Source: Amoebophrya sp. A120
Lineage: Eukaryota > Protista > Dinoflagellata
DNA: 64,000 nt
Assembly: GCA_905178155.1 (NCBI GenBank)
Contig: CAJINV010000002.1
Span: forward strand, 13,088,480-13,152,479
Reading direction: 5' to 3'
This document shows, one piece after another, positions 1 through 46,100 of this stretch. The stretch's first letter is position 1, and each line of letters begins with the position of its first letter. Under the pieces are notes generated by a model, which saw only the letters and a program-made list of their open reading frames with translations, searched no databases and had not been told where the DNA came from. The position numbers were made by a program, and so were the translations under genes.

Positions 1-253
1 CTGCAAAAGGGGGCAGACGTAATAGTCGTGGCCGCACTTTGATGCTCTTGTATTCCTGTTTTTCTGCAAGTAGAAGAGATGGATAAGCATGGCATAGCGC
101 ACCAGCTTTTTTTTCTTTTCCTGCCAGTATCGTTCTTCTCAGAGCTTCTAACAAGTCTCTGCAACCACGGGTGAAAATACGGCTCGGCGCCCATGAGAAA
201 GCCATTCGCGTGAGAGAAACAAGATTTTTTATTTCATACACGTTCCGGGCCCG

Positions 254-2410
254 TTGCAGTTGGCCGTTCAGCTTCTAGAGATCAGCAAGGTGGCAGCGCG
301 GATAACTGAAATCGTACGCCAGCTTGGGCCGGTGCTGCAGAGGGCTGCTAACACCATGCAAACCGAGCACAAGAAGATTTTCAACTACGTCAAAGACCAC
401 TATGACGCTATGTATAGGACTATAATGCTTCTTGTTACTTCGTTGAGAGGCTGGGCCGCCAGAGCAGGTAGTCATGCCCAAATACGTATCATACAGATGA
501 TGCTCCGGTGGGTTGTCTTCTCCCTTTTGACTCTTCCAGCAATCAGATCAATGGCAATTGCGGCATCGAAATTATATTGAAGGCTAGGAGCCAGCATGTC
601 CTGACAACTACAAATTGCTTGAAATTACTCACCTTTCAGGATAAATTGGTTCGGGGGCAGACGACAGGATGAGGACCAGGAGGAGTACGACCAGCGACTT
701 TCCAACAAGTTGCAGGAGAACATTGAAACTCAGAAAAGATGGCCGAAGTGGTCTGCGATCCCTCTGTGGGTCCGAGAAGTGGACGGCGAAACGGTGCAGA
801 CCTACGTAAGATTGCAGTTGCAGAAGGTGCGGTCTTCAACAGGGGATCCGCCGAGCAACCAGCAGGCACCGAGCAGCAGTTCGTCGTCTGGGGACACGCG
901 TGGCAGTTCCCGCGGTCACGGTGCTAACTTCAACGCAACCCAGGGATACCAGGCACAGGTCCAAACTTCCGTCGTAACTGTCAGAGACACGGCCGAGGAG
1001 ATTTCGCAGCGGGCTTCGGGGGTCATGAAGGATTTGATCGAAAACGGAGCGATCATGCCCGCGGTTCAATTTGGCATCGGGCAGTTGAGTAAAAAAATGT
1101 GGCAGTCGTGGGACGACAAACTCGATAATGAACTCCAAATCTTTCGATCAAAAACGCATCAGGCAATGGCGTTCAGCGGCAAGCCGGCGGCCCGGGCGCT
1201 TGTCGCCACGGTGCGTGATGCGGAACGCACCGCGATACTGGCAAAGTTCTCACCAAAGGAGCAGGCCAAGGTGAGGAAGATGCTGCTGCAGCAGGACCTG
1301 GACTCGGCGATGGATGCCGCGGGAGCCCTGGACCGCGGGGAGCCGGCGAGCCTCCACCACATCGGTGCGCTCACTGAAACGCTGCAGCAGCCCGTCGTGC
1401 TCCGCGACGAGAACCAGAATGTGCTCACCACCATCGGCAAGGGCCTCCCTGGTGCTCCGTGCAACGTCACGTATTATAAGGGCGAAAACGGCAAACCCGG
1501 ACACTACGTGGCGACGAATGCAGCCGTGGGGGACGGGTACACCTCCCCCGGAAAGCCTACCGGGAAAAATGCTTGCTTGTTCAATGCGGTGGCGGCGCAA
1601 GTGTATGGGGATCAGGGCAGGGGCGCACAATTGCGGGCCAAGACGGCTGCTCACATTCGGAACAACCCCCAGCGGCTCATGACAATTGCCAGTTCGATTC
1701 GCCGACACAACTTTTATAAGGGCGGCGCGCCGTCGTGCACGCCTGAACCTGGCAATGACCTCTGGAACGCAAACGCTGAGATGAGGACCTCGGTGGCCAA
1801 TCACGTAGTTGCACACGGTAAGGCCGCAGGTCACGATTGGCCACGACCCGATGCAGAAAATATTGATTTGCACTTCAATGTGATGCCTGCGTGGCAGGCT
1901 CATTTTACGTTAAGGTGGGGTGGTGCAAGATACGTTTACGGTGCGAATCCTGCAGATCTGGACGCCTTGCCTATCCTCCCAAATGATATTCGATACCGAC
2001 ACGACGCAAAGGCATTCGCTAAGGCAAAGGCTGCAGGCATAGCAGCGCCGAACGCGGCCCAGGCAAAAGCTGCACTCCAGCACTTTGTCACTTTAGTCCA
2101 TCCGATTGCCAGGACAGCAATCGCTGCAAAGCATGGAGGCGCAGTCGCAAACAATTTCCCCACTCCGGGCCATCTTACAGTCCAGCGGAATGACGACACT
2201 GTAAGAAGTGTCTTTGCTTTGAGTGGCGGCGTCTACGGAGGAACACTTGCTGCCCGCCAAGCATTTGCCGACGAACATAATCGAGTAGTGCTCCCACCCT
2301 TTGATCCGAAAGCTCTGGCTTTAGATCCGCCTCTTGGCGCCCCGGGACCGAAGCCAAAACCGAAGCCTATGCCAAAACCGAAAGGAAAGCCAGCTGGTGG
2401 TGGGGTTTAG
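254..2410 (+). CDS. 5'-truncated multi-exon gene: helical region + circularly permuted OTU-like cysteine protease + xxGG motif + unknown C-terminal domain
   Basis: Exons at about 254-468 and 640-2410, both in the same frame. An OTU His-loop-like segment 'HIGALTETLQQPVVL...VTYYKG...GHYV' (His codon 1502) lies before a Cys-loop segment 'GKNACLFNAVAAQV...LRAKTAAHIRNNP' (Cys codon 1574), then 'FYKGG' (1712-1726). The start of the gene is upstream of the window. Confidence 0.75.
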
Positions 2411-4246
2411 GAGGCGTCCATCACACCAATAACCTGTTAGTTTGAATGACGCCGTCGTTGGAAAGCAGCGCATCGGAGATTTAGCCGCCTGGCCCTGAAT
2501 TTCTATCGTGCATTGTGGACGCATGTCAGAGCCACTAGGAATTCATGCAAGTCTTAGCTCAAGACGAGCGACAGCTTCCCCTGCTGAAAAAAATCCGTTC
2601 GCTCAGGTGAGAACAAAGTGGGCTGCGACTTTCGACGATGCCGACAGTCTTGTCTTCGATATGATTTGGCAGAAAGAAAGGCACTTCTGCTGTTTGCCAC
2701 GAGCTATCGATAGAAACTTTGATCCCGGTTGAGCCTGTGTTTTTTATGAGGATTGATCCACAGTGTGCTTCTTACTAAGAAAGTATTTTTGTCGTCACTG
2801 CAACATTTTTATTAGAAATTGAAATACATATAGCAGCATCGACTTCAAAACCTTCTTCCGAAAAAATGCCGTGTACTCCGTGTATTTTTTCGATCCACAT
2901 AATTCCCCTTCCTGGGATTAGTTTACCATAGTTTTAAAATCCTCTGGATAATTATTCAGATATATTCATTCTGGCTGCGCGGTAGATTCTTATTCAAGTA
3001 TGTCGATAGTAAGAAATACAGCCACTTTTCCGGATTGTTTGGCTGCGTGGGTTATTTTATTTCTGTAGATTGTGTATGATATCGATATGAACATTCTGGG
3101 CACGCATTCAAAAGAAGAACAGGCATCAAAAAATAGATATTTGCCCCTTTCCGGATGTTTCGAGGCACATTGCTATTGACGTCCTTGAGCAAGCAGTCAC
3201 GCTTTGTGGAAAATGATAAAACATGTAAAATGAAAAGATGAGAAGTCGTTTCGTCCGCGCGTCAATAGGTGACATCTTTGAAAGTTTCGAGCGTTTTCAA
3301 TCGACATTTGATGACATTTACGTTTCGACCATGCACCGGACGTGTACTCTCACAGATGAAGGTGTGGAAAATGTCTATGAAAGTGTAGCTACGTCACTAC
3401 AATGCTTCAACAGGTCTGTGATTTACGAGCATGATGCATTCGTGAGTCATTCACTCGTCAGCGCAAGAAATGTAAAGCAGCCCTGAAAAAAAGAAAAACG
3501 CAGACATTGCTGGGGAGACGCAGTTTTCTCTTACACTCAAGGATTCGCAAATATGTTCGGGAGCAGCAATTACACTGATATATCATAAGGCAAAATCAAG
3601 GAACACAGAGCGGCCAGCCAGTCATTTTCACCTGAGCAAAAATTACACCTCGCGAAATGGATCTGCAAAAAAGCCGAGGATACGTGCGCCTTTCATCCAG
3701 ATTATACGCTGTGAAAACATCTAGGTCGAATGCATAACATTAATGCTCATGTTCGCGCGAAGAAATGACAAAAGATGCAAAGAAACCGGAGCTCAGATCA
3801 AAAGGGCGGACAGCGTCAGTAATTACGCTCACCAAAGAGGACTAGAAATTAAAGGAACATTTTTTTCGTCATTTATGCAAACCCAGGCGATGCATTTGGA
3901 GCAATTTTTCAACCGAATAAGTTATTTGCTAATGATGTATCATTCATTGTACTACTTAATCATGATGATAGTGAGCACTGCCATGGAGCGCGCCTCGGCA
4001 TGTTTCAAGCTCGCTTTTTTTTCCAAATTTGTTCGGAAATTGTATCTCTTTCTGCCTATGTGCATCTTTCGGAAGATAGTGAGAGCAAGAAGAAGCGAAG
4101 CTAGTGTGTAGATGAAATTGAATTTGTTGTTTCCATTGGTGACGCTTCGAAATTTTTTCAAACCGAGGTTTTATCCTCACTAGCCTATTCCCGTTCTGGA
4201 GATATAATTGACGCTCATCTCCACAAGTGTCACAAATTATAGTAAG

Positions 4247-7200
4247 ATGGGCGATCCCGTTAGAGCGAATCTTCATTTTCCCAATTCCCAAAGCAGTCCA
4301 GAAAGCCGGAAAAAGATGGAATTGTCAATCCGTGATCTCGCAGGAAATCGTTTGTGTGCCGTTCCAGTGGACCAAGACCAGGAGAGTATTCTTCTCCGAG
4401 ATGTGAAAAAAATCGTGGCAGAGATTTCTTGCCGTGGCGGACGCCATAGCATTCTCTTCGGGCAGGGCATTCTAGTTGACCAGAAGGTCTTTGAAGACGC
4501 TTGTTCGAATAGCATGATCACGGAACGACCCCCAGCGCCAAGAAATTTCCAGGAGACCGAGCTAACGCAGGCCGCCGCGGAGCAGTTTGCACGGAAGTAT
4601 ACGACTCAAATCCGAGAGCAGGGTGATGTATCTGAATCGCGGGAAAGTTGCCTCGAATCGCTCGTGTCGGCAGAACCAGTTGCGCTAGCAGCGGATCACT
4701 GCAATGGCCCTCCTGCCGGAAGTCAATGTGCCCCGGAACCCGACGAACACGAAATGAACAAATGCATCGTGAGGGATGGGCGCTTTCCAGTTCCGTTGCG
4801 GAGGGAGGACGGGCAGCGAGTGACGGAGATCCAAGTTGTATTCGACAGTCGTGCGGAGGAAGCGTTTCGCTGCGCCCGTCGCCGCCTTGAGAAGACTAGT
4901 GCGTCTGAGCAGAACGAGTTCTTGCGGTATTCGGAGTGGCAGTCATGTTCCCAATTTATTGACGACCTTCAGGTAGTTGCCCATCACGAAGTAGCGGACG
5001 ACTTACAGACCGACCGCGATCTCCCGGAAGAGTTAGACGAGAGGACGCATATAGTCTGTTGCTGCTGCAGATACAAATTGCAGGAAGGGGAGCTGCCGTG
5101 TCTCTGCGAGCAATTAACTGACATATATCCTCCCGGGGTAGACTCAAACTTCGGCACGTGCGATTTCGAATTTCGCGAGGCTTTGGTCAAGCTTGCAGTC
5201 GGGTCATCTTTAGAGTGGGATCCGTGTTCGAACCCGCAAGCAATAGAGATGGGAAGTACTGCGTCTCTTTTTCGATCAAGCAGGGACCTCACTCTGTTGG
5301 CATGTAGCATTAATGGCCTAGCGCTTCGCTACGCGACCCCAGTTTTACGCAAGGACTCGGATTTAGTCCGGGTTGCAGTGTCCAGGGATTGGCGATCTTT
5401 ACGCTTCGCAGATGTACTCCTAAGATCCTCGCTGGAGTACGAGGACATTGCTGAGTGTGCAATCAGGCAAAACGGATGGGCCTACAAGTATCTTCGAGGC
5501 GACCTTCAACACAGTATTTCCATGATCAAGCTAGCCGTGGAGCACAAACCGTGGTGTCTCCGTTGTGTTCCTGCGGAAGTGCGGGCTTCATCTGCCGAAA
5601 TACTTGCGAGAGCTGCAGCAACGGACGGAGTTCCCGCACTAAAATTTTGCGCGCAGCGCCTGCAAACAAAGCAATTGCTGCAAGTGGCGGTGAAGTCGAA
5701 TGGACTAGCGCTGAAGTATTGTTTGCCCGAGCTTGTTGATAGTAGTATTGTGGAGCTCGCTGTGCTGGAAAATCCATACGCTCTTCGGTTCGTAACAGAC
5801 GAAGCACTCAGAAGTGACGCTGGCATCCTACTGAAACTCCTTCGCGGTCCGAGCCCGATGCTGCGAGCTTCTTGGCATTTTCCATGGAAAGGAACGACAG
5901 ATAGCTTAGCTCTTGGCTTTGGGAGCAGGCACTGTGTACCACAAACCGGGGGAAGTCCTTCAATTTTTCCACTCCCATTTTTTTCCGCCAAAGATAGAAG
6001 TGGCTCGTCACAGTCTTGCGGCGACGAACTCGCTAGTGAGAGCGCGGCTTGTTCTGAACACAAATGCACGCCTTCCTGCGGTTGTTCCGCGTGTTTGCTC
6101 GCTAGTACAAAGTGGAATCGCACGCCAGCCCGATTTTCGAAATGTTTGCGAGCTACCACAAATGAAACGGTGAGGCGACACGCATGTCTCTTGCAGCGGT
6201 ACATTCAAGTCGCCGACTTCTGTGGAGATGGAGAGCACATCTGTAACGCAGTTTGCCACCGGCAGGGGCACTTCTACCCCACTACTGACGAGTTTACTGA
6301 GAGCAATGATGTTCTCACAGCGCACTTCGAGAACCTGCAGGAGGAAGAGTTCGCTTCAGTTCCAGAGGATCTTCCTGCCTTAATCCTACAGAAAGGGAAG
6401 CAAGCTGATCTCTGCGATAACACGGAACTCATTCGCCAGTGCGTCAAGCTTGACGGACTTTGCCTCGAGCACGCTAGTCTCCGACTCCGTTGTGATCGCG
6501 AAATCGTCCGAGAGGCAGTCGCTCAAAACCATGACGCGCTGCTTTTTGCAGAAGGTGACCTGCGTCGAGACCCAGAATTTATTGTGGAACTTATGGAACA
6601 CGCGTGCGCAGGTTCGTTTTGGAACGCAGACAAGGAAACTGTGCAGGATGTTTTACTTCTCGGACGCGCCGGCAGGGATCTCTCGTTACGGGCCTTTCGC
6701 GCACGGCCCTGCCTCCTGGAATTTGCGCAGCCAGAATTCAAGAAGGATTCCGCTATCGCTGAAGCGGTGTTGGCTCTTGATGGCACAGCCCTGCGGTTTT
6801 TGGATCCTCTTTTTCAACGCGAAAGGCGCTTCGTGCATCTTGCGATGACAGCTGGCGGTTGTCTCGATCACGCCGCGGAGTCGCTGCGACACGACGATGA
6901 ATATGAAAATCAATTCCGTTTCAGTGTCCTTGTCGGTTGTGAGGAAATTTTTCTCATCACCCTCTTGCCGCAAAGTTTTTCGTATGCAGAAGCAACATAC
7001 GTCCCTCGTGCGGTACGATGGACGTAAGGCACGGTGCCTCATGAGGCACGGTGCCTCATCTCATGCGATTGGCAATACGTAAAGCCACTGTTTTCCTATG
7101 CAAAGCTGTAAGCCTTTTCTGCTCAGGTGCGATTTTGTGTTTGGCATCAGCAGAAGATATCGAGAAATAAGCGCTATCAGTGCGGCGCCCGCTTTGCCTC

Positions 7201-17662: not shown

Positions 17663-20600
17663 GAGGATGGGTTGGCAGATGTGTGTGAAGCTCCGGGCGA
17701 TGATTACCCTTGTCCAATAGAGGCAGAACCCGGTGCCTCGGCGTGCGATACTACTGCGAAAATAGACGAAGACGCGACGCGTTTTGGAATCGACGACGCA
17801 GCAGCGACAACTGGCTCAGCGGTTTGGAGCACAATCGCCACTTTAGTTGGAACAGTCGGACTCCTCGCGGCATCAGGCGTCATTAGCTCTTTTGTCCCCT
17901 CAAATAGTGATCCGATCAGGCATAGCTCTGCTGGTGAGCCAGGTAGCGGAGTCGTAGCGTTGCCTCCACAAAGCGTCTTTGGTGGGGGCGATGACGACAG
18001 GGGGCACACTAACTGGCTTACGAATTCCGATCCAGAGCCGTCTGGTCGTCTTGACGTCTCAAGCATACCGCGGGCAGTTACTACAACGAATGTAACTCCA
18101 GCACCGCCTGTTGCAGTGGCGGGCATAGAGCACCATGGTGGGAGTGACGATGACAGGGGGCACACCGGCTGGCTTACGAATACTAATATGGGGCCGCCTG
18201 GTCTTGCCGTCTCAAGCGCACCACCGGCAGTGGCTACAGCAAGTGTAGTAACTCCCGCCCAGCCTGTTGCAGTAACGGGGCCTGACTTGCACGAGGCCCA
18301 GCATCAAGAGCACCATGGTAGGAGTGACGATGACAGGGGGCATACCGACTCCTGGCTTACGAATACTAATATGGGGCCGTCTGGTCTTGCCGTCTCAAGC
18401 GCACCACCGGCAGTGGCTACAGCAAGTGTAGTAACTCCAGCCCAGCCTGATGCAGTGACTGTGACGGGGACTGACTTGCATGAGGCTCAGCATCAAGAGC
18501 ACCATGGTGGGAGTGACGATGACAGGGGGCACACTGACTTGCTTACGAATTCTAATGTGGGGCCGTCTGGTCTTGCCGTCTCAAGCGCACCACCGGCAGT
18601 GGCTACAGCAAGTGTAGTAACTCCAGCCCAGCCTGATGCAGTGACTGTGACGGGGACTGACTTGCATGAGGCTCCGCATCAAGATCACCATGGTGGGAGT
18701 GACGATGACAGGGGGCGCACTGACTTGCTTACGAATTCTAATGTGGGGCCGTCTGGTCTTGCCGCCTCAAGCGCACCGCTGGCAGTGGCTACAGCAAGTG
18801 TAGTAACTCCAGCCCAGCCTGATGCAGTGACTGTGACGGGGACTGACTTGCATGAGGCTCAGCATCAAGAGCACCACGGTGGGAGTGACGATGACAGGGG
18901 GCACACTGACTTGCTTACGAATTCTAATGTGGGGCCGTCTGGTCTTGCCGCCTCAAGCGCACCGCTGGCAGTGGCTACAGCAAGTGTAACTCGAGCCCAG
19001 CGTGTGGCAGTGACGGGGCCTGACTTACACGAGGCCCAGCATCAAGAGCACCATGGTGGGAGGGACAATCATGACAGCGGGCACACTAACTGGCTTACGA
19101 GTTCTAATATGGGGCCGTCTGGTCTTGCCGTCTCAGGCGCACCTTTGGCAGTGGCTACAGCAAGTGCAAACCCAGCCTCTGCAGTGGCGGCCATTGACTT
19201 GCACGAGGCCCAGGTCCAACAGACACAGACGCAAAATACTCAGCAGCAGCCCCAGCAACAAGCCAATGTGGAGCAGCGGGCACAGCAACAAGCCATTTCG
19301 CAGCAGGCCCAGCGTCAGCCGCAGGGACCGCAGCAGGCTTCGTTGTTGGTGGCTCAGCGACAGCAGTTGGCACAGCAACAAGGCACCTTGGAGCAGCCCG
19401 CCGAGGAGGGGCGCGGGACGGAGCGACAGCTACAGCACCACACACAGCACGACGCTACGTCGCACGCGAGTCCACGCCAGCAGCTGGCACAGCCGCAACT
19501 CACGTTGGAGCAGCCCGCCGCTCACGAGACAGAGCGACGGATCCAGCTCCAGACACCGCATAACCAGCAGACCGCGGAGGCGGATGGGGCCCAGATGCTG
19601 GAGCAAGAAACTCAGCACCTAGGGAGAACGCGTAGCCAGCCAACCGCAGAAGAGCAGGCGGAGCGACAGCTCCCGCAGCAGGCCTCAACGCACGACCAGG
19701 TCCGAACTCAGAACACCGAGACCGACGACCCAACGAAGCAAAGCCTCCAGCTACATGTCCCGCCGTTGTATGACGAACAGCAACAGCTGCAAAATCAACA
19801 GACACGACAGCAACGCCAGACATTGCAGCTTCAGGAACAACCTTCGCCCGATGGTCGCGCAACAAACAAAGATGTGTCAGGCCCTTCAGCATTCACCACG
19901 TCGGCGTGGTCGTTCGATGCCGCGCCAATTGCAGGAGAGGCCTCCCGCCAGGCAAGCGGCCCCTATCGCGCCTTCGCAAGTCAGCTAGCCCCGTGTGTGG
20001 CAGCCATTATTTCGGATACTGCCGGCTCTACTGCTCGTAGTGGCACGAGTAACCAGAGAACACAGGAATCCGTCGGGGTGCCCCACTTGAGCGAAGATGC
20101 TTTAAGTGCAGTGGTTCGAACAGCGTTGACCGGCACGACTACTATCGTGCCAGACCAGCTTGAATCGCCGGCGACACAATACACCACGCTTTCGGAGCTC
20201 GCTCATCAAGCCGAGGTGCAGAAGAGCATAGCGCAGTTTGAGCTCAAGAGGAAAGAAGCAGAAGATCGCTGGAATGAACGTTTCGAGCTCGAAGAAGCAA
20301 GACATGCGCGCGTTGACGCGGAGCTCGAGGAAGAAAGGAGCGACAACATAAAAGCACGAGACCAGCGGCGACAGGAGCTCGCCGCCGAAAAGTCCCGCTA
20401 TGAAGATGTAGAGCGATCGCTGGAAGCGGAAAGGGATAGCGTGAGGCGTCGGCGCCTCCGCGAGAGGGAGGAGATATGCACAAAAATTGCGGAGGCGACT
20501 GCGCAAAAACGTGATCGTTTCCTTTCTTGTAGCAGCCTCAGGGAAGAAAACCGAAGTATCAGGAAAAGAACCCGCAAGAGACGAAGCGAACTTGCAGAAT

Positions 20601-20911
20601 TAAAGCAGGAGACTCAGGATCTGGACCGCGAAATTGGCGAGTTAGAGAGGCAGGGACAGGAACTGGACCAAGAGAGCGCGCATTTGGAACGAGAAATCTT
20701 CGTTGCTGAGTTGGCAGCCGAAGAAGAGGAACGCCTTGCACGCGAGGCCACGTCAGCGCGCGAGCAGCGGGAGCAGCGAAAACGTGAACAGGAGGAAGCA
20801 CAAAGAGACCGCGAAGCAGCGGAGGCCCAACAGCGCGAAGAAGCAGAGCCAGCGGCAGCTCGGCAGCGGGCCGCCGATTCCGTTCCGGAGAGAGAAACTC
20901 CCCTGAGATGA
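17663..20911 (+). CDS. Large terminal exon: TM helix + 60-aa Ser/Thr/Ala/His repeats + Q-rich region + E/R/K coiled coil
   Basis: An open frame of about 1080 aa starts right after an acceptor-like 'tatag', and the first in-frame ATG is not until about 18188. Contains the hydrophobic segment 'AVWSTIATLVGTVGLLAASGVISSFV' (about 17818-17895) and a C-terminal heptad-rich charged region. Confidence 0.8.
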   Translation, partial: EDGLADVCEAPGDDYPCPIEAEPGASACDTTAKIDEDATRFGIDDAAATTGSAVWSTIATLVGTVGLLAASGVISSFVPSNSDPIRHSSAGEPGSGVVALPPQSVFGGGDDDRGHTNWLTNSDPEPSGRLDVSSIPRAVTTTNVTPAPPVAVAGIEHHGGSDDDRGHTGWLTNTNMGPPGLAVSSAPPAVATASVVTPAQPVAVTGPDLHEAQHQEHHGRSDDDRGHTDSWLTNTNMGPSGLAVSSAPPAVATASVVTPAQPDAVTVTGTDLHEAQHQEHHGGSDDDRGHTDLLTNSNVGPSGLAVSSAPPAVATASVVTPAQPDAVTVTGTDLHEAPHQDHHGGSDDDRGRTDLLTNSNVGPSGLAASSAPLAVATASVVTPAQPDAVTVTGTDLHEAQHQEHHGGSDDDRGHTDLLTNSNVGPSGLAASSAPLAVATASVTRAQRVAVTGPDLHEAQHQEHHGGRDNHDSGHTNWLTSSNMGPSGLAVSGAPLAVATASANPASAVAAIDLHEAQVQQTQTQNTQQQPQQQANVEQRAQQQAISQQAQRQPQGPQQASLLVAQRQQLAQQQGTLEQPAEEGRGTERQLQHHTQHDATSHASPRQQLAQPQLTLEQPAAHETERRIQLQTPHNQQTAEADGAQMLEQETQHLGRTRSQPTAEEQAERQLPQQASTHDQVRTQNTETDDPTKQSLQLHVPPLYDEQQQLQNQQTRQQRQTLQLQEQPSPDGRATNKDVSGPSAFTTSAWSFDAAPIAGEASRQASGPYRAFASQLAPCVAAIISDTAGSTARSGTSNQRTQESVGVPHLSEDALSAVVRTALTGTTTIVPDQLESPATQYTTLSELAHQAEVQKSIAQFELKRKEAEDRWNERFELEEARHARVDAELEEERSDNIKARDQRRQELAAEKSRYEDVERSLEAERDSVRRRRLREREEICTKIAEATAQKRDRFLSCSSLREENRSIRKRTRKRRSELAELKQETQDLDREIGELERQGQELDQESAHLEREIFVAELAAEEEERLAREATSAREQREQRKREQEEAQRDREAAEAQQREEAEPAAARQRAADSVPERETPLR
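17980..19212 (+). repeat. Coding tandem repeat, about 180-189 bp unit, 6-7 copies
   Basis: Unit 'HHGGSDDDRGHTDLLTNSNVGPSGLAVSSAPPAVATASVVTPAQPDAVTVTGTDLHEAQHQE'. Central copies are nearly identical and terminal copies are diverged. Confidence 0.95.
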
Positions 20912-26000: not shown

Positions 26001-28145
26001 ATGCAACTTCCGGCCGCCCTTTTGCTTTTGGCGCTCAAGATGAGTTTCCTCATCAGAGAGGCCATTGCCGCAACCTCCGCTTCCACGCCTCGCCGTGTAA
26101 CCGGTTCTCTACTACACCGCCGTAAGCAAATGGAAGCTGCCTTAGATTGGGAGTAGGGATAGGTTGCAAAACCTGCATTATAAATATTTGTGTCGGAAGA
26201 AGGCATCCAATGTTTAGCTTATGTTGGCTCTCCAGACTAGACAAGAAATGGGCGCTAGAGGCAAGACGAGCATATGATGAAGTTTTGCAGTGCTATGAAG
26301 CCGCTCGAGGCTCACGACTTTGCGTCGTGTACTGCGCATTTATTTCATGCGATGGCGATAAGTAGAAGTCAATCGGCAGCATGAAACTTCTGCAACCTAG
26401 CATCCAATGACTCTCCGGACAGCTTTCACTTCGCAATGCGCCGGCCAATCGCAGTCCTCCTCCAGTATCGTGCGCCCGCATGCCAAAGGTGGCCACAAGT
26501 ACGGTTGGCAGGCTGACCTGGCCGCAGGCAATCGCACCGTGGGAGAGATACTACGTGAATTGACAGATGTAAAGAAGACAGTACTTGCAAATTATCGAAG
26601 TCGAAGCGGCCCTCTTTCGAGACGAGTGCAGAACAAGTGCTATTCATTCATCGTATGTTGACTCATGCATGCAATTCCATCTTTTCCTGAAATATATCAT
26701 GCTATTGGCTCCGGCCAGCGCCCGAAAAGAAAGTCTGCCTCCTGTGCGGAACGGAAACCAATTATGATATCTGCTCGAGACATAGAAGACTCCAATTGTA
26801 CATGAGAAGACGTGGTGGCGATGCCTCCAGTCTGAAACCCTGTTGCTCTGTTCTGAGCTAGAAACTTGCAGTAGAAAAAGAAGCACTACATCCAACGCGT
26901 TGCATGAAGATGGTGATGGGAGCTACACATTTGCTGAGGCGGAAGGTTGGTTCGTCACAAAGAGCCCTTCGGTCGAAGATTGAGTATCAAGCATCTCGTC
27001 AAGAGGATTAGGAGGATTGTTTTCGACGGGATGAGATTCCAGACCGGTCAGAGGAAAAACTGCAACGTCACGCGGAGAAAAAACGCGCCGAATCAGACCG
27101 GAAACGGGCAGAGAAAAAATACCAAGCGGAGCTGGATCGAGCGAGTGCTGAGAGGACAGAAGCCGAGGTGCAGAGACGCACAGCGGAGATGGAACGCATC
27201 ATGAAGGAGAAAGAAGATCGCTGGAAAGAGCGTTGCGAGCTCGAAAACGCAAGACCCGCATGGCGCGTTGCAGAGCTCGACGAAAAAGACAGCGACGCCA
27301 TAAAGACACTGCACCAGCGGCAGCAGGAGCTCGCTGCTGAACCGGAACGAGATAGCAGGAGGAGTCGGCGCCACCGCGAAAGGGAGGAAGTACAAATGAA
27401 ACTGCAGGAGGCGATCTCGCAAAAAAATGAAATCGCGCGGATTTGTAGCACCCTCGAAGCAGAAATACGAAATGTGCGGCAACAAACCGGCAACCCACGA
27501 GGCGAAACTGGTTCAGCCCTAACCCAAGAGTTTCAGGATCTGGACCGCGAAGATGGCGAGAAAACGAGGCTGGCGCAGCAACTGAAGCAAGAGAGCGCGC
27601 ATGTGGAACGAGAGATGTCCGCTGCTGAGTTGACAGCCGAGGGAGAGGAACGCCCAGCACGCGAGGCCACCTTAGCGCGCGAGCTGCGCGAGCGGCGAAA
27701 ACGTGAGCAGGAGGAAACGCAAAGAGATCGTATAGCAGCGGAGGCCCGACAGCGCAACGAATTTCAGACCGTGTTAGCAACGCCGCAGGTGGTCTCAATA
27801 GATCCACCGGTCAAGAGGTCAGTGTGTTGCAGAAGATCCAGCGGCCGCGGAAGGTGCAGCGGCCCGGCGCGGCACTCGGGATGGAGGAAATATTTCCCCA
27901 GGAGTCCGTTCTCCTGCTGCACACGGCGGTCATGCTTCGCGAAGGCCCGACAGCGCGAAGAGGCTACGGCAGCTCGGCAGCAGGCCGCAGAAGATGCAGC
28001 AAGCGCGAAGCCATTGTGTTGCAGAAGATGCAGCAGCCGCAGAAGATGCAGCGGCCCCGCGCGACACTCGGGATGGAGGACCTATTTCCCCAGGAGTCCG
28101 TTCTCCGGCAACGCATGGTGGCCATGGGCTGCCAAAAAATCTTGA
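26001..28145 (+). CDS. Probable secreted coiled-coil protein whose last exon is paralogous to the 20200-20880 coiled coil (possibly decaying)
   Basis: ATG 26001 gives MQLPAALLLLALKMSFLIREAIAATS (signal-like), followed by a donor-like gtaagc at 26122. The last exon has 'EDRWKERCELENARPAWRVAELDEKDSDAIKTLHQRQQELAAE', against 'EDRWNERFELEEARHARVDAELEEERSDNIKARDQRRQELAAE' in the 17663 exon. Middle exons are unresolved. Confidence 0.55.
27823..28105 (+). repeat. Two copies of an approximately 90-bp Cys/Arg/Trp-rich coding unit (CCRRxSxRxRCSGPARHSGWRxYFPRSPFS)
   Basis: 27823-27914 and 28015-28105 are nearly identical in DNA and protein. Confidence 0.9.
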
Positions 28146-40100: not shown

Positions 40101-43100
40101 CGCGGCCGCCCTGCTGAGAGCGGACGGCAGTGCGGCCCTGCCTAGTGGCGGCTCCGAGGAAAATCACCGGCAGCACAAGTTTTGGGTCCGGGTCGTGTTT
40201 GGGGATGAGCCACTGGAATTCGTTACGTCTCTCGCGCATCAGGCCAAACTGCGGCGTTTGGGGCCCGAAAGCGTCTTCTTCTGCTCGCCAAGCACGACGG
40301 CTGCCGAACTGGAGCTTTTTCTGCGCCGAGCGTTTCGATCGCCCAAAACTGTTGAGCGCTCGAAACATGATCCGACAGCGCTATTCTTCCTGCTGAATGT
40401 CGAACGGCTCTCCTATGAAGTGGCTGTTTCTACCACAAAAACTTACTTGAGCCTGCGGCGCACGCTCTATCTCGGAGTCACAGAGCCGGCTCGAGACGGG
40501 GGAGGTCCCTCTTCCCCGCAACACTACGAGGACGAGACTTCGACGACGGCTAGCGAAAGAGGTAACTTTGCTGCAGCGGATGACGCCATAATGAAAATCG
40601 AGGAAATGAAAACCCTTCTGGTAATCCATTCGCACCCAAGCGGACGCAAACGAAGCAATTTGTTGGCTCACTTTGAGGACCGCGTCCTGGAGAACGCCCG
40701 AGAGGAACTGGAACAAAAAGTCCCAGCTAATCCACTAGATTGGGAATCGTTCGAAGCCCCACGAGCGGGGGATGACCGCGCCGCTCGTGCAGTTTTCAGT
40801 GAAGATGCCGGTGGCGGCAAATCCTGGATGGTTGAGAGGCTGTATCACACCGTATTTAGCTAGCAGTACCGTTTTTGCATATCGTTGTGGTAGAACGAAA
40901 CAATCTGTCATGAGCAAATCCATCAAATTGTGTCTAGTCGCATTCACTTGCATGAGAGAGGACGTCCACTCGGTTGCAACCAGCGGGACAACGCAATATC
41001 ACTGCGACAAGGAGACTCTGCATTCACATTGAGAGCGCTGCCATTCCGTAGTTCTGTACACCGTCAAGCACAACGAGCTACTTGAGCTTCTATATTTTCT
41101 TCTTTCTGCATTGCGGTGGGGCTCTGTGTTGCATTACTTTTTTACATAAAAGTCATCGTTTTGCATTACAACTCTGCTAGCTTGTTCTTGTGATATTCTT
41201 CAGCTCGCCGACGAGCAAACCTTGAGAGATCGTGGGCTTCAGCCCCGACCACTACGAATAAACATTCCGGTTTATTCCCCACCCAGCGAAGACAGCCTTT
41301 GTGCTCGCATTCTGGACGAGGTTTCGGCGTATCTCCATGCAGGAATGATACTATCGAAAGTGCCATCGGAGCCCGTGCTAGTAATCAAAAAGAATCTTAT
41401 TTTTTGAGAATGTATGTTGTCTGAGGTTTTGATTAGCCGAGTACATCTGAACCATTTGTCGCAGCTCGCTCGTCGTGCAATACCTCAAAGGCCCTTTATG
41501 CGTGACCCTGAGAAAAATAAAAATTTACTCGCAAAATGATTTGAAATATTAAGATGCCTCTCTTTTTGATTCCTTGTGCCAGCAGTGCAATTTTCGGTTT
41601 GATAGGGAAACAAAGACCACCCTGGCGACAGCAAGAAGCAGGGGGCAACGGCCACCGATTCCATGGAACATAACAACTTTTATGTGTCCTTGCACCTAGA
41701 TATCGGTGCCGGCGTGCCCATGCGCCACACTCTCCTCAATGAGCTGCTATTCAAGCTGGTCGTGTTACGTCGGTGGGTCGACGCCCGCGACCGCGTCTGG
41801 CGCTTCAGCGACCGGGACCGCCTTTTTGTGGAGTCGAGCAATCGATGGGTGGTGGGCGACCGCTTGTCGTTCGCGCGACACCTGCAAGTCTTTAATGTGC
41901 CATCGCCGCAAGCTTTACTGAATCGCTCCGCTGTCCTCCCGCAAAGCAATTTACCGCTCGATGAAAATGCGAGGATTCAAGAACGCATGATGCGCTGGCA
42001 GCTCGAAGCAGTTCGGGGCGAAGCGAAGGCCGATGTTCTGCTCCTGGGTGTTGGCAATATAGAGGAACACCAGGATCGCCCGCAAATAGAAACTGCAACG
42101 AACAAAATCTGGCGGGATGCAGCCTGGTTCGCAGCGCGTCTTCCCGATCGAAGCCAGGACAGAATACGCAGCGCAAATGTGTTAGAGTCGGTGAACAAGG
42201 CTGAGGTGCGGAATACTTCGCTAAATCGAAGCAACAGGTCATGATGTCTGCAGAGCAGGCTATTCGCGTTTTGATGTTGTAATTTTTTTTCCGTACCGGA
42301 TCATTGCAACGAAGCGGGAGCGGGATTGAAAAATGTATTAAATAGGTAGATTATGATTGCATGATTGCCGACCCATATTTTTAGTCTTGGAGAACAACAT
42401 GGGCACTCATCCTACTTTGTATAGTTCAAGAAGAAGGCACTTGCGCACTGTATGTGAAGCGTTGTGTATAACGTCGAGAAGTAGTAGTAGTTTGCAAGCT
42501 AAAATAGCCTCAGTGATCATCTTGCTCGTCAAACATTTGCTATTTGAGTGGATAAAACGACGATCTCTGGGACCTTTGGAAGCCAAAATCCCATTTCTCA
42601 CGGCCGCGTGGGTGGGCGCCATGCGAGAAACAAGAAAACGAAATCCCTGGTGAGATGTTGAGCGACCGCAACGTACTTGGAAGGCTTATTGCCTTGAGCG
42701 AGCAAGAAAATCCGACATGGACGGTGCTTGTTTCGTTCGTGAAGCTCATTGCGTATCTCGACGAGCTTTTGCATTTCGCTCTGGACGAAAAGATCACGCT
42801 TTGGACATTAATGGAACAAAACGAAGGGCTGCAGGGCAGCAACCACTCGACCATGGCGCATTCGTTTAAGCACTTCGCGATGGAAAGAGCAAGGTTGGCC
42901 GCGATCGATTTTGCCACTCCCAGCCGCGAAATTGTTGAAACGTTCGAAGGGACGGGTGCCGCCTCCAGCGGAGTACCTGCCGCCAGTCGAAACCGCCGCG
43001 GATGGGAGGAGCGCGCGCACCCGTACCTGATCCCTACGAGGAACCAGGTTCTGAAGCACTTCGGATTCCACTTCCGTGACGGGAGAATTGTCATTGCCAA

Positions 43101-46100
43101 AAACAAGCCGCTCCGTGGACAGCCCCAGGAGTGGGAGGAGGAGAAATTGAAGGGTAAACACGGTTCAATTGATCCTGGGGTACTGAGGTGGATTAACGAA
43201 CAGTATTCCAGATTGAATTCCAACCCGGATTCAGGCTCGACGAGAACACAGGCTCCGGATGCTTCGGATCAAATGAAAAAATGGTGTAAGGACAATGCGC
43301 AGCTACTGCTGGACAACTTTTCTGCACTTTTTGCGCAACTCAATATTCAAGATGTCCGACCTGCCACTGAATTTTTGCTTCGGTGGAAGACCAATCCTGC
43401 GGAACTTACTTCGGACCAACAAGCGGTAGCAACCGCACTTGGCGCGGACATCGAACGTGCCGTCTCAAACGGCACCATGACTCCTGATCCAAGCCAAACC
43501 GACTTCGACATTAAACCTGGGGCGCCGGGCACCTTCCTGGGACCCCACATCGACAACGCCTCGCGCGACCAGCTGCTGGAGCATCTACGAGATGTATTGT
43601 GGGACTACGCAAATGGCGTTCCAGAAAGCCTGTCAGACCCTGATCCAGCTTTTGTTTTGACGCGCGACGTTTTACAAAAAATTCTCGCTATTCACATGCG
43701 CTTCTCAGCCGGGCTCCCCGTCTTCATATCCGGTGAAACCGGAATTGGGAAGACTGCATTGCTAGAGTACTACGCCAAAGTCAGACAGCAACTCCAGTTG
43801 CATGCGCCAAACCAGGAGCGTCGCACGCACATGGATGGCCAGGGTAGTCCACTCAAATTAATGCGGACTGTGAAAGTGCATGGTGGCGTCGGTCGTGCAG
43901 CACTGAATAGCTACGTGAAGGAAGCACTGCAACTTGCAAGATTTAATGCAAGAAAGGGGGTGCGGGAGACACTACTGTTCTTTGACGAAGCAAACACGTC
44001 GTTGGAAGTCGTGTGGGGGGTGAAAGAATTGATGACCAATGGTCGACTTCATGGTCGTGACCTGCGCAGCGAGTTGGAAGGCACGGAAAGAAATTTCGAA
44101 ACAGGCGAGCAGTTCCCGTTCCGCCTGCTTCTCGCAATGGCCTGCAACCCGTACCGAGTGCAGCCACTCGCCGTTCGAAGGCAAATGCACCGCGCTGGAC
44201 TTGGCTACCGGCACGCAGCCGAAGAGGTGGAGAGCAACGACTCGCCACAAGACGATCCTGCAGCCCGCGTTCGTCCTATGCGGGACCTAGTGTACCGTGT
44301 GGTGAGGACGCCCCCTTCACTATCCCGAGTAAAAACGTCCCCACCCAGCAGGATTCTGTGTGCTTTATTTACTGTGGTTTTTTCCAGCACAGAAACAGTC
44401 CAGAGTCAAATGAGGAATTTTGCTGCACAAACCATCACGTCTTGGCTGTTCCGCATGACAACTTAAAGTTTGGGCTTCCAAAAGCATAATCGCGCTCAGC
44501 GTACTAGTAAAGCTGCCCCACCAAGTGGCCATCTTATCCTGATTGCGGCATGACACCTGGCACTGCCAGACCGTATTTCGAAAAGCTCCTCGCGTCGCTA
44601 CGCATGCGAAACATTTGAGTATTGTACGTAGATTTGCAGGCCAAGCCTGGGGTGGGGACGTTGTTACGCAGAATAATCCTTGAGAGACAGCATATTCGAG
44701 TTTGGTTCTCTCCCTGAAGACGCCGAAGCGGATTACGCCCGCCAAATCATCCTGCGACGTATCCAATCTATGCTGCTCGATGGACGACTTCGACCTGCTC
44801 CGAAACCCTCTCTGAGCCGCGCGCAGCGAGACACAGTCAGCGAAGGTAGTGGTGGTGATTCGGAGACCGCGCAAGTGGTGCTGGATCAGGAACAGGTCTG
44901 GCGTGATATGGTGCTGGAAATTCAGAAGTTAAGAAAAGATTCTGAGAAAGGAGAGAACAAGATCCGTGACATCGAGCGCGATGTTTTTTTATCGGTAGAG
45001 GACTCCGCTGCACCCCCTTCCGGCACGGTGGCGGCCGTCGCAGAGTCAGGACCAGCGGGACCCGTTGCTGCTGCCGCGTCTGAAGGACACGAAACAGCAA
45101 TCGCTGCTTCATCCCAACCCCCTGAGGACAAAGAGCGTCTTCTGAAAGGCGCCCTTGCTCGTGCATTTCGGTACTTTCGCGATGAAAGTTATTATGTGAA
45201 AAAAGTTATGAACCATGCGCATGCCGCAAGGCCGGGCGTCGGGGGCGCCAATCACGGCACTGCTGCTTCCCAGGCCGAGCACACCAACGAGCAGGAGCCA
45301 ACTCCACCCGTTGTTACCGATGCCGGCACTAACGATGCAGGGCAAGCAGAGCCAGCACCCGCGCTTCCGGTCCAGCATAATAGCGACGAACAGGAGGCCG
45401 CTGACATATGCATTGCAAATATGTCTGAACCCAAAAACCTATGACTGATGCTCCATTACGGATGGTTGCAGCGCTTGCAACGGCAGCCGAACATGACAAG
45501 CTTTTCGAACGCTTTGTGATGCCTGGCACGCATTGCAAATTGCGCTTTTGTATGAAAAAGGAGGTTTTGCTTTCGCTGCTCCGGCAGCGCTGGTTTTTCC
45601 GCCCTTTGAGATGAAACACGCATTACTACTTTCAGTTTTCGTTTTCCAGACCCAGACGTATTTGCATTCGATAGGGCAGTGACAACAGCAGTTTCCGGTT
45701 AATCCCGGTTGCTCTGCGGCAAAGTTTGTCGGAAATGTTCCACTGCTTTCGGAATGATTTCAAAATATTCGAGGACTACGTCGCTGCAGAGGTCGAGAAG
45801 CATGGCCGACCCGCACTCCACGAGCAGTTGCAATTCAGGGAACCACATGCAGCCGCCGCAGGCCAGAATTTGGGCGATGGGACAGGAGATGCTGGCACAC
45901 CCGGTTTACAGCAGCGGGAAACCAGGACTGTTCCTACCGGCGTCATTAATATTCCGTACGCTGAGCTGCTGGAGAACAAAGCCTTGTGTTTTTACTGGCG
46001 CGAGGGTTACGCCAACAACAGAAGCTCAGCGGCTCTGCTGCGTCGCATTCTCTACACGTTTACCGTCGAACAGGTAACAACCCACAGGATCCTGAGCCAA

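Follow-up and report, generated by a model that had tools for sequence, protein, structure and literature searches.

An open reading frame near the start of this Amoebophrya sp. A120 sequence raises the question of whether a cysteine protease whose two active-site halves stand in reversed order cuts its own chain at the Gly-Gly that follows it, and of what kind of tip such a cut would release. ORF 710-2410, on the plus strand, encodes 566 amino acids, and all of its motifs share one frame. HHIGAL lies at 1355 and PVVL at 1391, GHY at 1499-1507 contributes His265 and Tyr266, NACLFNAVAAQ at 1568 contributes Cys289 (codon 1574), LR..A.HI..NP spans 1631-1669, and HNFYKGG at 1706-1726 places the Gly-Gly at residues 338-339, with exactly 227 residues beyond. 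The His half, carrying GHY, thus precedes the Cys half in one frame, as had been read from the sequence originally.

A permuted OTU-like protease in the last exon of a longer gene

The reading frame belongs to the final exon of a gene whose start lies upstream of the window, by which we mean the whole 64,000-nucleotide stretch analyzed (Table 1). A word-index search, a method of low sensitivity, returned one match among 3013 candidates, the EukProt gene model GSA120T00025530001.1 (P0002); a further search of this kind gave three matches among 7993. Once the intron at 412-639 is skipped, P0002 and the window agree without a mismatch between about 243 and about 1327. In sequencing run X4, which we took by guess to be RNA, a contig's loose end at 243 runs into the preceding residues of P0002, and in a contig beginning at 640 the loose end is the close of the exon before it. 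The gene model stops before the protease. Because a single X4 contig crosses 1271-3200 with no joint or difference, and an X6 contig bridges 1509-1939, we place both the protease and the tail in this last exon. Such modules are probably under-annotated, since the public gene model cuts the gene off before the protease. Pfam gave no match for 710-1291. The spliced boundary at 243 (window 232-243) has no AG acceptor, which fits a non-canonical intron; introns of this type are common in Amoebophrya according to excerpts of PMC7789003.

Table 1. Features of the gene within the window
Feature	Position	Strand	Basis or detail
Coding exon preceding the last exon (helical stretch past the hydrophobic segment)	243..411	+	translates to part of P0002
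GT-AG intron	412..639	+	skipped in P0002; ends checked
First part of the last exon: linker of low complexity and helical stretch before the protease	640..1249	+	frame of ORF 710-2410
Circularly permuted OTU-like cysteine protease	1250..1720	+	His265 (codon 1502), Tyr266, Cys289 (codon 1574)
Conserved Gly-Gly, predicted P2-P1 of a self-cleavage site	1721..1726	+	family conservation
Variable 227-residue tip with a Pro/Lys-rich end	1727..2410	+	same-organism copies part at 1731 and 1737

To establish what the domain is, we compared it by sequence and by predicted structure. The Pfam OTU model covers the Cys half alone, with an E-value of 0.0028 that falls under the curated cut-off. A search of 1.84 billion representatives yielded 39 matches, and 28 of these were aligned with the window sequence (alignment A1); the His is present in 29/29 sequences of this alignment and the Cys and both glycines in at least 90%. 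When compared with human OTUD5, the A1 profile matches in two segments of swapped order (E 1.4e-7), positions 65-129 of A1 corresponding to OTUD5 37-108 and positions 21-67 to OTUD5 125-173. An AlphaFold model of the protease has a mean pLDDT of 86.6, and its top VIA match is EschOTU (6W9S), at a middling Z of 7.6 against a trust level of Z 8 (rmsd 5.7, 134 residues aligned, collinear over model positions 1-160). Since this Z lies below 8, the sequence and structural evidence are read together, and both the profile and the fold match show homology to the OTU family. The next VIA matches are CE-clan proteases, in which the His also precedes the Cys, at a Z of about 5.3. Foldseek found nothing for the protease model at E 0.001; OTU domains head its weak rows, and TYMV PRO is among them. 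One homolog's protease falls in an OTU cluster of the Atlas at 0.83, which we treat as a lead only. The swapped match to OTUD5 and the fold match to EschOTU bear out the permuted OTU that had been proposed.

EschOTU, as described in part of Schubert et al. 2020 (10.1101/2020.03.28.013474), has the same reversed His...Cys order, with termini near the S1 helical arm. The domain studied here resembles EschOTU and EmcB in having a His-aromatic pair before the Cys and termini opened near that arm; those enzymes, to go by the excerpted sources, are trans-acting deubiquitinases (DUBs) whose third catalytic residue is Asn or Glu, whereas nearly all members of the present family lack an acidic or Asn residue at His+2. 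For family counts we used 36 sequences, namely the 39 matches minus four, plus the window. The four dropped were P0005 and P0035, which match the Cys half alone, P0028, which has no profile match, and P0022, which ends before the Gly-Gly. The catalytic Cys is kept in 35 of the 36, as is an aromatic residue at His+1; in P0041 an Asn replaces the Cys and the Gly-Gly is retained. The residue at His+2 is T, S, V, M or K (Val in the window), and so not D, N or E, in 34/36, and E in the other two. Judged by sequence, the usual third catalytic residue at His+2 is thus missing in nearly all of the family. By sequence and fold the domain is therefore a permuted OTU, yet it is not a DUB of the triad type.

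A conserved Gly-Gly followed by polymorphic tails

The Gly-Gly itself was expected to be conserved in homologs, and this held: it occurs at the aligned position in 34 of the 36 sequences, 45-61 residues from the conserved Cys, against a background of 30/536 for the other cysteines in those proteins. P5 is L or F in 34/36, so the site reads L/F-x-x-G-G and is no copy of the tail of ubiquitin, LRLRGG. The earlier label of a ubiquitin mimic therefore overstates the likeness; the Gly-Gly is shared, and nothing else is, the hydrophobic residue lying at P5 and not at P4. P2 is Gly in 35/36, and the sole P2 Ala is found in P0039, which is also the sole sequence without an aromatic at His+1. An aromatic after the His limits P2 to Gly in DUBs, as reported in excerpts of PMC7391069, and the double exception of P0039, one case on a long branch, is suggestive of a tie between P2 Gly and the aromatic. 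Conservation collapses straight after the Gly-Gly: with the Gly-Gly anchor picked by hand from A1, identity per column falls to 0.19 for the residue next to it and to 0.05-0.09 farther on.

The sequences that follow this boundary differ from one protein to the next. Of 630 pairs, 596 are related by BLAST in the protease and 23 in the tail, and where the proteases are 60% or more identical, in 40 pairs, the tails are related in five, figures for unrelated pairs that are inflated by the tails of P0014 and P0026, both probably cut short by an intron. The 36 members fall into 25 tail clusters, with the tail of the window gene as a singleton. One clade of four in the protease tree carries four unrelated tails; in this tree P0018 was left out and 17 of 32 branches are open, so that repeated origin of any one tail is not proven by it. 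A constant N-terminal part thus precedes non-homologous tips that start from a fixed boundary, the arrangement of polymorphic toxins, and the expectation that the C-termini would differ between paralogs was confirmed across the family and, as described below, among copies in the same organism.

Bacterial toxin- or nuclease-like domains were found in three family tails, most tail types resting on scans of whole proteins for domains. Among the tips that could be assigned, the tail of P0037 is Ntox33 (E 1.7e-23), that of P0033 is DUF5675, P0020, a member of a seven-member cluster, carries a CdiA-type RNase (Atlas score 0.93, 24/30 matches), and an animal-like locus (L004) has Endonuclea_NS_2 in a likely second exon downstream of a GT-AG intron whose junction was read by eye. 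The family supplies about 25 tip types, most of them unclassified. In P0031 and P0032, degenerate repeats of the His half of the protease, one or two in number, break up the RNase-like tips, which suggests internal duplication. At another, bacterial-looking locus (L003, 496-1531) the tip is followed directly by a gene for a DUF805 small membrane protein, a candidate immunity gene; this tip has no Pfam match, and we take its pattern GG-A..R-T..D-x-D to be that of nucleotidyltransferase toxins.

For the window's own tip, no relatives were found in Pfam, NCBIfam, PHROGs or PDB sequences, and a word-index search limited to proteins of 124-398 amino acids gave 0/1959. A single-sequence model of the tail (pLDDT 48.7, best Z 3.2) matched no fold. 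The tip contains two HxT motifs 90 residues apart (1901 and 2171), a spacing that is presumably that of 2H phosphoesterases. Since the tail searches and the model gave no match, we kept the 2H-phosphoesterase reading as a mere lead. Within the 64-kb window there is no second match to the profile or to the tail.

Copies from the same organism were sought in runs X1 and X2, which come from one sample, perhaps the source of the assembly. Their contigs contain copies of the protease that differ from the window at 34 and at 4 positions within 307 nucleotides, and show three different continuations after 1731/1737; the two continuations that are not the window's do not align to the window tail at 80% identity. 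The 34 differences listed for the more distant copy affect 33 codons, 25 of them synonymously and 8 with a change of residue, and spare the His and the Cys. Read in frame by hand, the 30 letters that could be seen of either of these other tails resemble the first ten residues of the window tail, so the same-organism tails may reflect local hypervariation instead of wholesale swapping. All X1/X2 contigs differ from the window at 1588, 1594 and 1621, positions within the protease at which X3-X6 agree with the window; this mismatch indicates that strains or collapsed copies are mixed.

We also assessed the change in codon usage that had been noted across the Gly-Gly. The hand counts of codons ending in A or T were reproduced exactly (12/60 from 1202 and 31/52 from 1802), and over the whole reading frame such codons number 99/341 before versus 119/225 after codon 341 (Fisher p 1.4e-8). 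The best changepoint was reached by none of 1000 permutations. The shift is thus real and significant, but its center is not at the Gly-Gly: the best changepoint is codon 363 (about nucleotide 1796), some 23 codons downstream. The fraction of A/T-ending codons is 0.29 in the protease part and 0.53 in the tail, and the 15 other long ORFs of the window, at 0.37-0.48, fall between both values. The protease part is therefore as atypical as the tail, and the shift marks a compositional boundary that is silent on which side is foreign. Codon usage was accordingly rejected as proof of recent acquisition, both halves being off the window norm, and it lends the recently acquired tail of the original prediction weak support.

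A SecA-like chassis in full-length relatives and its distribution

A delivery or translocase domain had been suggested as something to look for upstream of the protease. In full-length relatives, 1.5-5 thousand amino acids long, the protease module is indeed preceded by a SecA-like ATPase, TPRs and hydrophobic helices. The upstream part of the window gene matches that of the SecA-bearing relatives, and a SecA region of its own would lie outside the window. SecA-family Pfam domains were detected in 16/17 relatives longer than 1500 amino acids, many of them with TPRs, and all 13 that were checked retain complete Walker A and DExD motifs. Hydrophobic, glycine-rich segments (KD 1.6-2.6) lie 480-640 residues ahead of the Cys. 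Furthermore, the N-terminus of P0002 aligns with the same region in 21 of the 39 matches. Ulp1/RickCE-like domains occur in 5 of 21 proteins scanned.

The closest named relatives come from Amoebophrya sp. AT5.2, whose P0039 carries SecA domains; named carriers are the rotifer Rotaria socialis and Amoebophrya AT5.2, three of the ten relatives looked up having names, and a Rickettsiaceae MAG with two copies. Among Rickettsiales genomes, 7/401 match, mostly weakly. Two copies in one genome (G354) keep GHW/GHY, the Cys motif and the Gly-Gly, and a distant Rickettsiales relative (L011) has no Gly-Gly within 45 residues after the match. Viral contigs and phages gave no matches, nor did plasmids searched with P0016. 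A Megaera plasmid protein named 'SecA-like domain protein' matches the profile, with GHY and Gly-Gly present and the Cys pattern not matched. On this plasmid (L020, 347-20815) two SecA-like genes stand in tandem, of which just one has the protease module, a pair that recalls wBol1_1091/1092.

Very long SecA-domain genes of this kind have been described before. Excerpts of Duplouy et al. 2013 (PMC3639933) report giant 'eukaryotic secA' genes that insects, Daphnia and protists such as ciliates carry and that have been exchanged with Wolbachia and Amoebophilus, and excerpts of PMC5062602 place them also in the phage WO EAM. The relatives found here resemble these genes in length and SecA domains; the portions of PMC3639933 considered here assign no function and do not contain the terms 'OTU', 'protease' or 'C-terminal'. 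The prediction set out below, if true, would give these genes, known since 2013 without a function, one that can be tested. General background is found in parts of PMC10318531 and PMC3417536.

Predicted self-processing and competing explanations

These observations make it likely, in our view, that the gene encodes a polymorphic effector whose permuted OTU is predicted to cut its own chain after the Gly-Gly. What points to autoproteolytic release of the tip is the conservation of the Gly-Gly and of the gatekeeper aromatic; the freed tip is probably toxic and exchangeable. Four outcomes could count against the auto-processing effector of the original prediction (no Cys-His dyad in the model, a Gly-Gly not conserved in homologs, one C-terminus common to all paralogs, no Cys-dependent cleavage), and the three that can be checked by computation left it standing. 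Specifically, permutation would give the chain an opening next to S1, like that of EschOTU, and the protein's own Gly-Gly could for that reason be fed into the groove. The chain leaving the last helix would lay L/F-x-x-G-G into the groove that normally holds the tail of ubiquitin, the aromatic after the His would admit Gly alone at P2, and a single cut after the Gly-Gly would free the tip. More tentatively, the ATPase and hydrophobic helices might carry the tip through a membrane or control when it is let go, with a host cell or competitors as the target. Recombination just downstream of the Gly-Gly would renew the tips, possibly by exon exchange in the animal-like copies. By analogy, the protein would work like a polymorphic toxin with a predicted autoprotease. 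Whether the giant SecA-like genes of protists, animals and endosymbionts as a whole form a polymorphic toxin system run by eukaryotes, in which a SecA-derived motor delivers or gates the OTU-freed tip and permutation has turned a deubiquitinase into a cis-acting release switch, is in our judgment evenly balanced.

The delivery step is where the strongest competitor lies. The protein may instead act inside the producing cell as a sensor-effector of innate immunity or suicide, its SecA-like ATPase sensing or unfolding an invader's molecule and the tip being released there after the same processing and with no export. This is possible, if distinctly less probable than the self-processing effector proposed above, with which it competes on the delivery step only. 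It would suit the fact that a free-living habit prevails among the eukaryotes named as having giant secA genes (Rotaria, and in excerpts of PMC3639933 insects, Daphnia and Tetrahymena) and that no convincing small or immunity gene lies behind ORF 710-2410 in the window. The hydrophobic, glycine-rich helices ahead of the protease, with KD values up to 2.6, speak against it, as do the bacterial endosymbionts that carry the same chassis and the small membrane-protein gene behind the tip of L003. Given these helices and the copies in endosymbionts, we slightly prefer delivery of the tip to release inside the producing cell.

We regard as improbable a purely trans-acting role, in which the domain would be a deubiquitinase or protease of ubiquitin-like proteins akin to EschOTU or EmcB, with the Gly-Gly a self-inhibiting pseudo-substrate or a leftover and the tail remaining on the protein to serve in targeting or as a second effector. 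The characterized permuted OTUs are DUBs in the excerpted sources, the aromatic gatekeeper is a DUB feature (excerpts of PMC7391069), and a parasite could use DUB activity. Such a role leaves unexplained why conservation ends exactly at the Gly-Gly and why unrelated, nuclease-type tips follow it, and the H-aromatic-D/N/E triad of efficient OTUs is missing in 34/36. Nor are the two activities exclusive, as the domain could act as a DUB after cutting itself.

Enzymes of the Ulp1 and DUB types also cleave after Gly-Gly, and the cut could in principle be made by another protease, either a cellular DUB/ULP or the N-terminal Ulp1-like domain of the relatives, with the OTU fold presenting the site. 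The Ulp1/RickCE-like matches in 5 of the 21 scanned proteins and the Gly-Gly that P0041 keeps without its Cys are in line with this. We nevertheless think it very improbable: almost every member retains both Cys and His, P0039 is the exception at P2 and at the gatekeeper alike, and 11 of the 16 SecA-bearing relatives have no Ulp1-like match at E 0.001. That the Gly-Gly is a flexible linker or recombination point with no cut at all is the least credible reading, for although Gly-Gly is common in linkers and cleavage itself is a prediction, the pair sits a fixed 45-61 residues from a conserved catalytic Cys, in a fold whose known cleavage site follows Gly-Gly, and its P5 residue is conserved.

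The self-processing reading has parallels in known systems. Viral papain-like leader and polyprotein proteases such as TYMV PRO and potyviral HC-Pro, which cleave themselves at Gly sites, are likewise self-processing enzymes with a minimal Cys-His active site; in contrast to the present domain, they have the Cys before the His and release viral replication proteins, with no variable toxin tips. For polymorphic toxins of bacteria, too, OTU domains (Tox-PLOTU) have been predicted to be the peptidases that release the toxin (Zhang et al. 2012, excerpts of PMC3482391); there, as here, a constant N-terminal chassis precedes an OTU peptidase predicted to release a variable C-terminal toxin. Tip families common to both are Ntox33, the CdiA-type RNase and an endonuclease. 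Unlike Tox-PLOTU, which the excerpts describe for actinobacterial T7SS and endosymbiont proteins, the present gene is a spliced eukaryotic one, and its family has a conserved Gly-Gly site and a SecA-like chassis. Permutation goes unmentioned in these portions of PMC3482391, and SecA appears in them once, as a variable Amoebophilus effector domain; a table lists some eukaryotes for Tox-PLOTU, so that its survey may overlap this family. In the EmcB family, the benefit of permutation is called unclear in excerpts of PMC12501173, which contain no terms for self-cleavage; here the Gly-Gly follows the protease in cis. Our searches of literature accessible without subscription turned up no description of the SecA-permuted OTU-Gly-Gly-variable tip architecture. 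If it works as predicted, it would suggest that eukaryotes, a dinoflagellate parasite among them, run polymorphic effector arsenals of bacterial design.

The remainder of the window contains several other long genes on the same strand. The next gene downstream (4208-7027, plus strand) has a 939-amino-acid ORF with seven DUF4116 repeats (E 1e-44). Two further plus-strand ORFs, 17672-20911 and 27168-28145, have similar coiled-coil C-termini, and the first of these, for which Pfam gave no match, is predicted to have a membrane segment and contains tandem repeats that are long and rich in His and Asp. Finally, a run of long same-strand ORFs at 33165-60786 (plus strand) includes weak AAA matches at 42655-44466, and by its motifs this run may be one giant, intron-split RNF213/mysterin-like gene.
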